DNA of 64,000 nucleotides from Eledone cirrhosa (lineage: Eukaryota), in assembly GCA_964016885.1 (NCBI GenBank), contig OZ024748.1, forward strand, positions 52,576,001 to 52,640,000, in the 5' to 3' direction. Within the stretch, counting starts at the first letter, position 1, and each line of letters starts with the position of its first letter. Made by a program: the position numbers and the translations under genes. The notes below the pieces were generated by a model that had not been told where the DNA came from, did no database searches, and worked only from the letters and a program-made list of their open reading frames with translations. Positions 10,300-60,535 of the stretch are shown piece by piece.

Positions 10300-10343
<44 letters not shown>

Positions 10344-10414
10344 GTGTATATATGTATATATGTATATATATATGTATATATATATATGTATATATATGTA
10401 TATATATGTATATA

Positions 10415-10466
<52 letters not shown>

Positions 10467-10597
10467 CATGTGTATATATTTATATATATATGTATATATA
10501 TATGTATATGTGTATATATATATATATGTGTATATATATATATATATATGTGTATATATATATATATGTGTATATATATATATATATGTGTGTGTAA

Positions 10598-10634
<37 letters not shown>

Positions 10635-10638
10635 TATA
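10165..10638. repeat. (AT)n/(GT)n compound microsatellite
   Basis: Direct reading. Confidence 0.95.
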
Positions 10639-11318
10639 GTAGAGAGACAGGGCTCAATGGCTCAACGTACTCGCCGACCTCTGCCGAAAATTATAGAGGC
10701 TGGATTCTTATAGAATTCCAGTAATAATCAGGAACTGGTTATACAGAGCGATTGCCGTTCCAGCAAAAATTAAAAATTAGGGTTGGGGCCCTGAAATAGC
10801 GATGTATACATGAATGTATGTATAGTATATTTGGAAATATACTGTATGTTTAATTAAAAACATTTTGAAGACCTTGCGCTATCATTTTAAAGTAGTTACT
10901 ATGTCACTTACTTCTTTTTTCGGCAAAGGAAGGGAGAGAAGATGACAGATTCTGGTTACATTCATGTATACATCGCTATTTCAGGGCACCAATCCTAATT
11001 TTTTATTTTTGCTGGACCGGCAATCGCTCTGTATAATCAGCTCCTGATTATTACTGGAATTCTATAAGAATCCAACCTCTATAATTTTCGGCAGAGGTCA
11101 GCGAGTACGTTGCTCTGAGGAACACCAACAGTGTGAAACAGAATCTGTCAGCTTCTCTCCCTTCCTTTGCCGAAAAAAGAAGTAAGTGACATAGTCACTA
11201 CTTTAAAAATGATAGTGCAAGGTCTTCAAAATGTTTTTAATTAAACATACGGTATATTTCCAAATATACTATACATACATTCATGTATACATCGCTATTT
11301 CAGAGCACCAATCCTAAT
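10639..11318. mobile_element. Fold-back insert containing a ~319-nt hammerhead-bearing unit in two permutations (Penelope-like/retrozyme-like)
   Basis: 10663-10954 is the reverse complement of parts of 10957-11318 in permuted order. There is a 43-bp direct repeat at 10957 and 11276. Both sides are flanked by (TA)n. Confidence 0.8.
11112..11152 (+). ncRNA. Type I hammerhead ribozyme
   Basis: gct CTGAGGA acac-caaca-gtgt GAAA cag-aat-ctG TC agc. Both core boxes are present, stems I-III pair, and the cleavage triplet is GUC at 11147-11149. Confidence 0.85.
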
Positions 11319-11559
11319 ATATATATATATATATATATATGTCAATGTATGTATATATATATATGTGTGTGTGTGTCAATGAATGTATATATATATATAT
11401 AAACATGTTTTAACAATCTTGTTACATATTCAATGAAGGTGAGTTCATTTTTTTTGCTTGTTTGTTTTTCAATGAAATATAATGTAATAAAAAGAAAATT
11501 ATTTGAACAGAACAAAAACAGCAACAACAACAACAGTAGCAGAACTAAAAACACTTACA

Positions 11560-15632: not shown

Positions 15633-15660
<28 letters not shown>

Positions 15661-15665
<5 letters not shown>

Positions 15666-15853
15666 GAACGAGTAGGACCCCGACGGCTGAGCTCAAGCCG
15701 TTTTGACGGCTAATTCAGTCCAGAATTAGCCGTCGAAACGGCTTGAGCTCAGCCGTCGGGGTCCTACTCGTTCCTATAATCGACTCTACTACCCTAAGTA
15801 TTGAGTACTTTGGTGCGTTATGGTCCATCTGGTTCCTTACCACATTTCCTTCG

Positions 15854-22835: not shown

Positions 22836-22954
22836 AGGTGAGTTTTATTGTAGTACAATAAAGCAATGCAGATATCGGATAAGAAGCACTCTACAGTTTG
22901 TAGGACTGGAGTATACATAATATAAGATCAAAAGATGGTTAAAGGAGTTCCATG

Positions 22955-23025
22955 TATTTTATTATGCGCATTTCAAAAACAAACATCATCATGCAATAAT
23001 ATTTGTGTTTTCATCAGATAAAACA
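22955..23025 (-). ncRNA. Type I hammerhead ribozyme (inverted copy)
   Basis: Reverse complement of 23147-23217. Confidence 0.8.
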
Positions 23026-23146
23026 GGAGAACATGATATGAAGGCTAAAAAACACTTGTGGATAGTGCAAGTTTTAAATCAACATATATGTTCATTTAAT
23101 ACTGCACTATCCACAAGTGTTTTTTAGCCTTCATATCATGTTCTCC

Positions 23147-23217
23147 TGTTTTATCTGATGAAAACACAAATATTATTGCATGATGATGTTTGTTTTTGAA
23201 ATGCGCATAATAAAATA
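23147..23217 (+). ncRNA. Type I hammerhead ribozyme
   Basis: tgttttat CTGATGA [long stem II aaacacaaatattatt/gatgatgtttgttttt] GAAA tgcgcA TA ataaaata. Stem I is 8 bp, stem III is the palindrome atgcgcat, and the cleavage site is AUA. Confidence 0.8.
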
Positions 23218-23269
23218 CATGGAACTCCTTTAACCATCTTTTGATCTTATATTATATATATATATATAT

Positions 23270-36142: not shown

Positions 36143-36314
36143 TTGTTTCCTTGATCAAGATACTTTATTTCACATTGCTCCAGTTTACTCAGCTGTAGAA
36201 ATGAGATGATAGGGACTGGGGTCCCTATCATTACACTGCAAAGTGGCCGTGTAGGCCCCACAGAAAAAAAGCACCCAGCACTCACTGTAAATGAGGTTGG
36301 TGTTAGGAAGGACA
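36143..36314 (+). mobile_element. SINE family A, internal fragment
   Basis: ttgtttccttgatcaagatac...gttaggaaggacat. Confidence 0.85.
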
Positions 36315-36654
36315 TTACTCAACAGGGTACTCAATACTAGGGAGTCTCGACTCTTTATGATATATATACATATGTGTGTGTGTGTGTGTAAATAAAATGA
36401 TTATTTACTACTATATTACAAATATATCATAAACCCTTCACCTGCTGAGACCCTAAGCTATGTGAAATTTGAGGCCCTTCTCTAAAAAATTATGATTAAT
36501 ATCTTTTTTATGTTAATGTTAATGATAAAGAATGAATTTTATTTGTATGTATGTATGTATGTATGTATGTATGTATGTATGTATGTATGTATGTATGTAT
36601 GTATGTATGTATGTATGTGTGTATGTATGTATGTATGTATGTATGTATGTATGT

Positions 36655-36930: not shown

Positions 36931-37021
36931 TAAACTTTCTTCCCCTTAAACCCCCCCCCCCCCCTCCCTTTAATGTCTCTCCCCTCACACCCTTGGAAAT
37001 CTTTTCCTTTCCACTTTTCTC

Positions 37022-37049
37022 CTGATGAAGGGCTTATGACCGAAACGTC
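37022..37049 (+). ncRNA. Minimal Penelope-type hammerhead core
   Basis: CTGATGA agggcttatgacc GAAA CG TC after a pyrimidine tract. Stem III is the palindrome acgt. Stem I is not convincingly paired. Confidence 0.6.
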
Positions 37050-37136
37050 GTCCCCCACCCCACACTCTCAATCGTGAACCTAATACTAACAATGTTTGTA
37101 CTGCACTCTTTGTTATTGTTTTTATTTTTTGTTTTA

Positions 37137-37243: not shown

Positions 37244-37997
37244 TATACATTAAATTTAGCTCTGTAACTTACACAGAGCACTCTTCACTCCTATGACTTT
37301 TTCAATTTTCAACGGAAACTTCAATACATGTATATATATATATCTATATATGTATGTATATATGCTTATATATATGTGTGTATGTGTGTGTGTGTTATTC
37401 ATTAATATTCACATTAATATAATAAACATACTGTTTCAGAGAAGGACCTCAAATTTCCTATAGCTTAGAGCCTCAGTAGAGGAAGGTCCAACCCTGGTTG
37501 TTAACAGGTTTAGTGATATAATATCTGTAATCTAGTAGCAAAATAATTATCATTAAGTTAATTATGCATATAATATAATCTTGATTATTACTCCAAATTT
37601 GAACACCAACACATGAAAAATTGACAATTTATATTATATGCTTTAGATCTTAGGATTTGTTATTGTTTAAAATATTTAATAACTAAATGATTTATTAGAG
37701 TATCATGCTGTCATTTTTCACAAATATAATTTACAGGTTTGAGATTTCATGTGATTCATCTTGATTTAAAAATGAACACATACCACCAAGAGCTCTTTCA
37801 CCATACTACTGACAGATACTACAGTTTGATTCATATATTCATAAATATGGATATATATATACATATATATATATGTGAGTGTGTGTGTGTAAATATATAT
37901 ATGTATATATATAAATATATATGTATATATAAACATACATAATTTTATATATACGTATATATAGATACTTATATATATATATATTTCAGAGCTCCAA

Positions 37998-38038
<41 letters not shown>

Positions 38039-45559: not shown

Positions 45560-46092
45560 GAATTGGCAGTATTGATAGAGGGTCAGACATGCTTTCCAGC
45601 GTAGTTACGTTCCGTTACGATCTGAGTTCAAATCCCGCCGAGGTTAACTTTGCCTTTCATCCTTACGGGGTCGATAAAATAAAGTATCAGTAATGTACTG
45701 GTTAATTGCTGGCCTTGTGCCAAAAGTAGAAACAATTATTATTTACTGGAGACCAACAGCATAGAGTTATGTCCCTTTACATTCTGATTTCAAATTCCGC
45801 CAAGGTTAACTTTGCCTTTCATCCTTACAGGTCGATAAAATAAAGTATCAGTAATGTACTGGTTAATTGCTGGCCTTGTGCCAAAAGTAGAAACAATTAT
45901 GATTTACTGGAGACCAACAGCATAGAGTTATGTCCCTTTACATTCTGATTTCAAATTCCGCCAAGGTTAACTTTGCCTCTCATCCTTACGGGGTCGATAA
46001 AATAAGCTACCGGTAATGCACTGAGGTTGATTTAATTGACTTTCCGCTTCCCCTTAAATTGCTGGCCTTGTGCCTAAAGTAGAAATAATTAT
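45560..46092 (+). mobile_element. Three tandem family B SINE copies, including a ~160-bp tandem duplication
   Basis: tttactggagaccaacagcatagagttatgtccc is repeated at ~45743 and ~45903. Confidence 0.88.
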
Positions 46093-47544: not shown

Positions 47545-47780
47545 TAGAAGGTGAGTAATATTGTAGAACAATAAAACTATGCATATATGTATGAGATAAG
47601 TAGCACTCAACAGTTGGTAAAACTGGAGTATATATAATAAAGAGAAATTAAAAGATGGTTAAAATTTATTATTTTATCTGATGAGAACACATTTGTCCCA
47701 GTATGATTTTATATTCGAAATGCGCATAATAAAATATATGGAACTCTTTTAACCATCTTTTAATTCCTCTTTATTTTATA
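47545..47780. mobile_element. Fold-back insert with hammerhead and tail in (TA)n, same family as 22831-23255
   Basis: Tail gtagaaggtgag...agcactc...ctggagtata. Short inverted arm aaaagatggttaaaa / ttttaaccatcttt. Confidence 0.8.
47670..47736 (+). ncRNA. Type I hammerhead ribozyme
   Basis: tattttat CTGATGA gaa...ttc GAAA tgcgcA TA ataaaata. Stem I is a perfect 8 bp and stem II closes with G-C. Confidence 0.82.
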
Positions 47781-58007: not shown

Positions 58008-58215
58008 AATATAACAAAGTGGATATGGTAAGATACGAGGTGGACCATAACACAAAAGAGTACTCAATACTTGGGGTAGTAGAGTGGGCAATATGAAAAG
58101 AGTCAGGAACCCGACAGCTGAGCTCCAGCCATTTTGACAGCTAGATCCAAACAGTTTGGATCTAGCTGTCAAAACAGCCGGAGTTCAGCCATCGGGGTCC
58201 TGACTCTTTTCATTA
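58008..58215 (-). mobile_element. Fold-back insert (60-bp arms), same family as 15661-15855
   Basis: Arms 58093-58152 and 58154-58213. The tail 58010-58092 is the reverse complement of 15779-15857. Confidence 0.8.
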
Positions 58216-59461: not shown

Positions 59462-60535
59462 AATATGTATGGTTCTATAACTCCTGAGGAAGTTGTAGAG
59501 GTGCTATATTGACAGACAGCGTTTCTTGGGCAATTTAAATCTGGCAGAGCCTAACCCACTCCAGGCCTAAGTACAGCAGATTTCTTCGAGAGAAAGATAG
59601 ATAATTGTTTCTACTTTTGGCACAAGGCCAGCAATTATCCAGTGTATTACTGGTACTTTATTTTATCGACCCCGTAAGGATGAAAGGCAAAGTTAACCTC
59701 GGCGAGAGAAAGAAAGATAATGAAAGGGAAGGAGTGAGAAAGGAATAGTAGAGGAAGAATTGACCTATATTGACAGACAGCATTTCTAGGGCAATTTAAA
59801 CCTGGCAGAGCCTAACCCTTCGTAGAGACCTGAAAATCCGCCTCTTCATTGCTGTAGTGGAGTCTGTGCTGCTGTATGGGTCTGAGACTTGGACACTGAC
59901 CAAGAAACTCACTCAGATGGTGGATGGGTGCTACACGAGAATGCTGAGGATGGCTCTGCACATTAATCAGTATACACTGAGGATGAAAAACTCAGAGCTG
60001 TATGGGAGCATCCCAAAAGTCAGCTCAAAAGTGACACAGAGGAGATTGAGGTTAGCTGGACATGCTCACCGACATCCAGAGTTGACATTGCACTCAGTGC
60101 TCCTATGGGAGCCCCTACATGGGCACACTAGAAGAGGAAGACCAAGGTTAACGTATGTTGATGCCCTAAGGACAGACACTGGTCTATTGGAGACGCAGGA
60201 CATGGCAGCGATAATGAGGGACAGAGACCGCTGGAGAGAACTCGTCCATGGATCTCGGGAATTTTACCCGCCTTAGAGATAGAGAGCCTAACCCTCTCCA
60301 GGACTGAGTACAGCAGATTTCTTCGAGAGAAAGATAGATAGTGAAAGGGATGATGCGGGGAAAGGGTTAGTAGAGGAAGAATTGACCCCAGTACTAAACT
60401 GGTACTTTTCTTTATCGTCCTTGAAAGTATGAAAGACAAAGTTGACCTCAGCAGGATTTGAACTCAAAGAGCAGAGAGTCGAATTGAATATCAGAAAGCA
60501 TTCTATCCAACGTTTTAACAACTCTGCTAATTCAC
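59462..60535 (-). mobile_element. Partly duplicated family D SINE carrying a nested family B fragment (59601-59704) and the RTE insertion
   Basis: tatattgacagacagc...ctggcagagcctaaccc occurs at ~59506 and ~59766. The B-type head is at 60385-60535. Confidence 0.78.
59820..60282 (+). mobile_element. 5'-truncated RTE/RTE-X LINE with uninterrupted C-terminal ORF and 13-bp TSD
   Basis: LKIRLFIAVVESVLLYGSETWTLT...YTRMLRMAL...RRLRLAGH...LLWEP.HG..RRGRP.LTY.D.L..DTG is typical of the RTE C-terminus. TSD agagcctaaccct at 59807-59819 and 60283-60295. Confidence 0.93.

Follow-up and report, generated by a model that had tools for sequence, protein, structure and literature searches.

The insertion and its surroundings

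Within the 64,000-nt stretch of Eledone cirrhosa DNA analysed here (the window), positions 10639-11318 (680 nt) form a single insertion of a dispersed 319-nt repeat that has no ORF, its two arms lying head to head. The repeat is likely a retrozyme-like (non-LTR), non-autonomous Penelope-type element (PLE) with a predicted hammerhead ribozyme. The locus is laid out below, "u" numbers being positions along the unit 10957-11275.

10308..10638, no strand: (TA)n-rich tract on the left target side (TRF period 2, 166 copies)
10639..10662, minus strand: 24-nt stump outside the 319-nt unit, assigned to the short end of family B (from genome matches and family B ends)
10663..10954, minus strand: inverted arm, u183->319->156, without hammerhead core and stem II (285/298 columns identical to the plus unit)
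10955..10956, no strand: head-to-head joint between the arms' 5' ends, near blunt (from sequence and alignment)
10957..11318, plus strand: direct arm, a 319-nt period (10957-11275) plus 43 nt, stopping at the family's long end
11085..11176, plus strand: type I hammerhead whose stem I is extended; core at 11112-11152, with cleavage predicted after 11149 (pairs checked; covariation in 39 copies)
11276..11284, plus strand: short-end site (u9), one of the family's two fixed 3' ends and a putative reverse transcriptase (RT) start (52/91 short ends at the mode; loose contig ends)
11285..11318, plus strand: 34-nt "tail" between short and long end, the long end u43 being a second putative RT start (45/105 long ends at the mode; 474 exact end-plus-TA matches)
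11317..11364, no strand: (TA)n tract on the right target side (TRF period 2)

The plus arm is as an earlier note on this DNA had described it: it starts at 10957 and covers one 319-nt period plus an overlap, its first 43 nt recurring at 11276 (42/43 identical, spacing 319). The scattered substitutions that the note saw between the arms are likewise there, with 13 differing positions in an alignment of 298 columns. Its account of the minus arm stands in part. That arm does start within hammerhead stem III, but the full turn round the unit was wrong: the stretch 10954->10663 holds 293/319 positions and lacks u157-182, which comprise the core and stem II, and is therefore not a full permutation of the unit. 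Similarly, the (TA)n reported beyond the minus arm is real, with TA tracts flanking both sides, but the 24-nt tail reported with it belongs to another repeat. The tail has 26 genome matches within 2 mismatches (control, 0), which identify it as the short end of another inverted repeat with TA targets, family B. The junction between arm and tail occurs once in the genome. By this assignment the minus arm is chimeric, and the locus thus has the unit's long end on one side and family B's short end on the other. Neither arm is nested in the other, so a fold-back of one arm on itself is a poor fit at this locus. Only microsatellite frames in the window's ORF list overlap the unit.

Family B yielded 3,148 first-look candidates. 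Its copies are short, inverted and set in TA targets, with two fixed ends separated by about 85 nt, and include those at window positions 15659-15835, 58035-58168 and 36313-36343 and at loci L255-L281. Along a stretch of about 9 nt its long end resembles that of the 319-nt unit, and the two might use a related RT. The sampled family B arms contained no ORF and no visible hammerhead, and family B was not established as the pseudo-LTR (pLTR) of an autonomous element. Elsewhere in the window we noted a decayed stump of the 319-nt family (37930-38004, 76% identity, long end followed by a TA run), a 161-nt SINE-like unit repeated 2.6 times in tandem (45603-46023) and a 158-aa frame (59800-60276) that we take to resemble a LINE RT C-terminus. 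A consensus-like splice donor and acceptor lie 122 nt apart within the unit (11182-11303), and PLEs are known to retain introns; the putative intron was spliced out in 0/149 scorable sites (211 lacked an anchor).

A dispersed family with two fixed ends

The 3.0-Gb host genome returned 2,278 first-look candidates for the unit. Exact matches numbered 406 for the core pattern, 2,347 for a 17-mer just downstream of the core and 474 for the long end plus TA, against 0 in each reversed control; the family is abundant far above chance. About 250 of its thousands of copies were inspected, in four sets: the 30 best BLAST loci (set A, biased towards long-ended full-length arms), the loci of the first 100 core matches (set B), those of the first 100 17-mer matches (set C), and 70 loci from the first 100 long-end matches (set D, some common to C). 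Between 9 and 15 overlapping or duplicated loci were removed ahead of counting. The earlier note had proposed looking for tandem arrays and comparing the start points of copies. Natural periods of about 319 nt do exist: 24 were found, 293-342 nt long and mostly 315-318, with 82-97% identity to the window unit and at least four subfamilies among them. Long arrays were absent from the samples, where copies are dispersed, mostly shorter than two periods and at most about 3.5 periods long. The longest array seen (L198:1986-3075, about 3.5 periods) has periods that are only about 85% alike. Same-strand hammerheads 2.6 and 4.5 kb apart, considered as a long element, proved to be segmental duplications. 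The core 25-mer was not found in metagenome or viral contigs.

As for start points, the 310 anchored sites comprised 105 long ends, 91 short ends, 73 that continue and 41 others. The two end classes have their modes 34 nt apart, at u43 (45/105 long ends) and u9 (52/91 short ends), and a TA run followed 86/111 standard ends in set B versus 1/17 other ends. Loose ends fall at the same two sites in independent contigs (three runs, one sample), although such contigs are unsuited to showing ends or level. The targets being TA tracts, target-site duplications, which in retrozymes exceed 4 bp when present, are unreadable. The earlier note had taken the two arms for circular permutations of the unit. 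Their starts were not chosen freely round a circle: across the family the 3' ends keep to two sites, and variation is confined to the 5' ends. Penelope-type head-to-head insertion with fixed 3' ends accounts for the permutations themselves.

Arms lie head to head in 100/187 loci and tail to tail in 3, with joints (n=101) that overlap in 46 cases, are blunt in 9, and leave a gap of 1-10 nt in 29 and of more than 10 nt in 17. Two standard ends were present in 71 of the 101 pairs, and 65 of these combined a long with a short end, as opposed to 5 short-short pairs and 1 long-long pair (p = 6e-14). Among 52 further set-D loci beyond set C's range, picked by the long end only, 24 had a short partner end, 1 a long one, 1 both and 26 none. 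Paired arms diverge by 6.1% and random arms by 12.0%; paired arms belong to the same subfamily and probably derive from the same template pool. The short-end arm extends further 5' in 23/31 pairs, an effect that is weak after allowing for its head start.

The 34-nt spacing and the two end classes match the tail of PLEs. In an anole PLE, as described in parts of PMC11167929, the 30-40 bp tail is delimited by two RT start sites, both downstream of the hammerhead, and these are used without strand preference. Excerpts of PMC3846280 and PMC8557442 already describe a tail on only one inverted pLTR and give head-to-head as the PLE layout; the literature that we searched yielded no count of one-ended tail pairing and no two-ended priming model. 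Several features of a non-autonomous PLE derivative are present in our family: a tail of 30-40 bp, an inverted 5'-truncated copy with a one-ended tail, and a microsatellite or AT-rich target. The element in the window was likely inserted via priming from both target ends.

The hammerhead and the RNA template

The hammerhead that the earlier note placed in the plus arm stood up to inspection, with the core at 11115-11121, GAAA at 11135-11138 and GUC at 11147-11149. Stems I (11112-14/11150-52), II (11122-25/11131-34) and III (11138-41/11145-48) are all Watson-Crick in the window copy, and stem I is prolonged via an internal loop (3 bp, loop, then 3 bp plus a 13-bp outer helix, 11085-11176). For the core assignment we relied on what we take to be the hammerhead consensus. 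Rfam found no hammerhead in the window at the gathering threshold or at E<=10, where only hairpin and microsatellite noise appeared. The core is kept in more than 200 arms. The earlier note would have counted it against its reading if other copies never had an intact junction into the CTGAGGA core; such a junction is the rule in them.

We aligned the window copy with 38 of 141 available hammerhead regions (set C) and found 90.6% of helix cells paired, compared with 85.8% in shuffles and 46-56% in slid controls. Double changes occupied 58 cells versus 18 in shuffles, affecting 8/13 outer-helix pairs and 3/4 stem II pairs; proximal stem I and stem III were conserved, with zero double changes. 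Kinship among copies inflates these counts, yet in entire subfamilies the outer helix has exchanged both of its strands. A type I hammerhead structure is supported by these compensatory changes, and self-cleavage is predicted.

A circular fold of the window unit scores z -5.7, and six periods range from -2.7 to -6.1 (25 shuffles each); the predicted circle is highly self-paired, as in retrozymes, and antisense strands fold well too (z -1.2 to -6.7). In the window monomer an inactive fold is predicted to be more stable than the best active one by 4 kcal/mol, and the near-palindromic stem III could, by prediction, pair with a second copy as a dimer. Such an arrangement is said to spare monomeric circles (PMC4209133, in part). 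Same-strand core pairs spaced 317-319 nt occur only three times among the first 100 core matches, so monomer-yielding loci would be rare; a monomer could not come from the window copy itself, which has a single hammerhead.

What RNA was copied? The earlier note had suggested a circular or tandem template copied past its start point. Copying is indeed continuous over the cleavage site, and 16/71 long-end-anchored arms are longer than one period. The cleavage site was crossed by 63/71 arms in set C, with 2 stopping within 3 nt, and by 35/37 in set D, with 1 stopping there against 1.5 expected; since arms read through the site, we rejected a cut linear monomer as the usual template. On a second pass over the site, 20/34 rows cross, 3 stop at the site and 11 before it (two rows are inner L198 periods). 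The long ends of arms exceeding one period spread over u37-50 (38/65 at u43), which fits internal initiation on an RNA that continues. No exact one-turn length peak was found, 2/71 arms measuring 314-324 nt.

We lean, at slightly better than even odds, towards a circle as template, and set directly against an uncut tandem RNA it is narrowly preferred. The absence of stalling at two scissile bonds, the likeness of periods, the u37-50 spread and the predicted switched-off monomer make the circle more likely, and Cervera and de la Pena, in parts of PMC7229834, report circles for all the species that they tested. A strong competitor, which we judge appreciable in probability but below even, keeps the non-autonomous PLE element and two-ended priming and takes as template an uncut linear partial-tandem transcript, occasionally lengthened by template jumps, with any circles as a side product. 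Such a transcript would agree with the stopping rate, which more than doubles beyond one period (0.46 per 100 nt, rising to 1.1 past 300 nt; p 0.001) and is also compatible with finite transcripts, but the crossing of two scissile bonds without stalling speaks against it. Rare variants are shared in register at 26/8412 sites and out of register at 1/1664 and 6/5028 (p 0.002 at a 4% cut-off), an excess expected to favour the linear transcript, but three loci drive this signal and it is gone at a 2% cut-off (p 0.63). In the window copy one variant (u29) is common to the minus arm and the inner period and absent from the terminal repeat, which also points towards a linear tandem; against it, consecutive periods diverge by 7.0%, little more than paired arms do. 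In vitro the anole PLE works mainly on uncut RNA (excerpts of PMC11167929), and 8/9 Xenopus dimers did not cleave, as far as the partial source goes, both in line with an uncut template. Internal initiation on a linear transcript would, however, shorten the lineage with each round unless jumps restored its length.

Mobilisation and relatives

That the 319-nt unit is non-autonomous and Penelope-mobilised is our core reading, to which we assign a probability of roughly 85%; both the retrozyme-like unit and the Penelope link of the earlier note are supported. The genome holds many PLEs, with 150 scored GIY-YIG matches among 10,596 candidates and unbroken RT-EN frames. Two of the loci (L150:7122-4309, minus strand; L151:1275-4562, plus strand) carry unbroken RT plus GIY-YIG frames of 938 and 1096 aa with a CxxC linker, as in young PLE families. 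No pLTR in common with the unit was found in 52 GIY-YIG loci (50 distinct) by Smith-Waterman and profile search. Matches to the unit at these loci were separate insertions, and one weak match (L067, E 1e-4) had the look of an old, independent insert. The RT plus GIY-YIG frame of an autonomous PLE was found neither in the window nor continuous with any sampled copy. Because none of the 52 loci has a common pLTR, PLE mobilisation of the unit, which we consider likely, is argued from integration footprints and not from homology.

Other hammerhead-like motifs occur in the window. Positions 22917-23260 hold a head-to-head pair between TA runs with a minimal motif per arm (cores at 23017, minus, and 23155, plus), each with a long stem II and a palindromic stem III; motifs of a similar kind lie at 47678 (plus) and 58794 (minus). 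The group looks like PLE pLTR stumps. A further motif at 37016-37060, with a short stem II and a palindromic stem III, is unrelated to the 319-nt unit.

It is improbable that the copies are instead solo pseudo-LTR stumps of an autonomous PLE, or a DNA-level satellite, with the 319-nt period as a by-product. Such an origin would leave all the PLE hallmarks that we see, and our survey took in only about 250 copies out of thousands and, of the many GIY-YIG loci, 52; but the period of about 317 nt closes on itself in at least four subfamilies (24 periods), none of the sampled copies runs on into an ORF (the PLE fragments seen at 12/184 loci are neighbours), and dispersed copies of mostly under two periods, about 3.5 at most, are unlike a satellite array. 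A one-off local inversion or assembly artefact at the TA tract, suggested by the genome-unique outer junction of the minus arm, is refuted for the family by the same geometry in 100/187 loci, the 13 differences between the arms and the shared end sites in independent contigs, and we give it almost no credence.

Three known systems come closest to the family. With the metazoan non-LTR retrozymes of coral, mussel and axolotl, as far as parts of PMC7229834 and of the Li et al. preprint (10.64898/2026.07.22.740005) describe them, it shares a unit of 150-450 bp in head-to-tail copies (here 24 periods, with 16/71 arms above one period), low GC (37%; 0.31-0.38 here, under 50%), no ORF and no evident LTR layout, a type I hammerhead with a short near-palindromic stem III, a well-paired predicted circle, thousands of copies and PLEs within the same genome. 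Unlike them, it consists mostly of dispersed head-to-head pairs of 0.2-2 periods rather than arrays, and its integration ends map to two fixed sites. Among Xenopus retrozymes, 24/57 families have repeat homologues, nearly all PLEs, according to the partial source, whereas our unit has no pLTR homologue in the 52 loci.

With EN+ PLEs (Poseidon of Anolis, PMC11167929; Adineta Penelope, PMC3846280; Craig et al., PMC8557442; excerpts of each) the family has in common 5' truncation, partial tandems, an inverted 5' copy, a tail of 30-40 bp at a single end, a pair of end sites downstream of the hammerhead and AT/TA targets; in contrast to these, it has no RT-EN frame and a fixed 319-nt period. Its hammerhead has a long stem I with an internal loop, unlike the minimal hammerheads of PLEs described in parts of PMC4209133. 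Chlamys non-autonomous elements such as MRC1 (PMC8557442, in part) likewise derive from PLEs, with pLTR-like partial tandems and head-to-tail insertions, but they lack canonical hammerheads and have a 3' end like that of a known autonomous family, whereas the 319-nt unit is without a partner among the 52 GIY-YIG loci. The 319-nt family thus appears to behave like a non-autonomous PLE and to have the sequence-level features of non-LTR retrozymes, its cleavage and circle being predictions. We found no literature description of it, though it may be catalogued in repeat databases or preprint supplements. A link between retrozymes and PLEs has already been published (parts of PMC7229834 and of preprint 10.64898/2026.07.22.740005); the footprints of integration in this family are unusually clean.

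In the mechanism that we propose, rare tandem loci would be transcribed, hammerheads in the tandem transcripts would cut, possibly as dimers given the near-palindromic stem III, and the monomer would be ligated into a circle. A Penelope protein would then cleave a TA tract on both strands and prime two cDNAs, one from the long start site and one from the short. Each cDNA would end at a variable position, and the two would be linked head to head. In the window copy, the outer end of the minus arm would have been replaced by the family B stump, with which a template switch during insertion and a later deletion between neighbours both fit. Taken whole, this explanation (a PLE RT/endonuclease acting in trans on an RNA continuous over the ribozyme site, with a ligated circle favoured over an uncut tandem) strikes us as modestly more probable than its negation. 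Less likely than not is a more specific version in which a Penelope dimer, with a subunit per start site, reverse-transcribes a viroid-like 319-nt circle simultaneously from both ends of the cut TA tract and beyond a full turn; the copies would then be fossils of rolling-circle retrotransposition, and the window locus would show one complex carrying, or switching between, two RNAs.

PLEs have earlier been argued to be the mobilisers of animal retrozymes via co-occurrence and sequence trees; here that proposal gains countable physical footprints in the tail, the inversion and the TA target. The near-strict pairing of long with short ends puts numbers on the known "tail on one end", and it makes the origin of PLE inverted insertions testable in vitro. 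The 319-nt RNA also offers a short substrate for asking if retrozyme circles are true templates.
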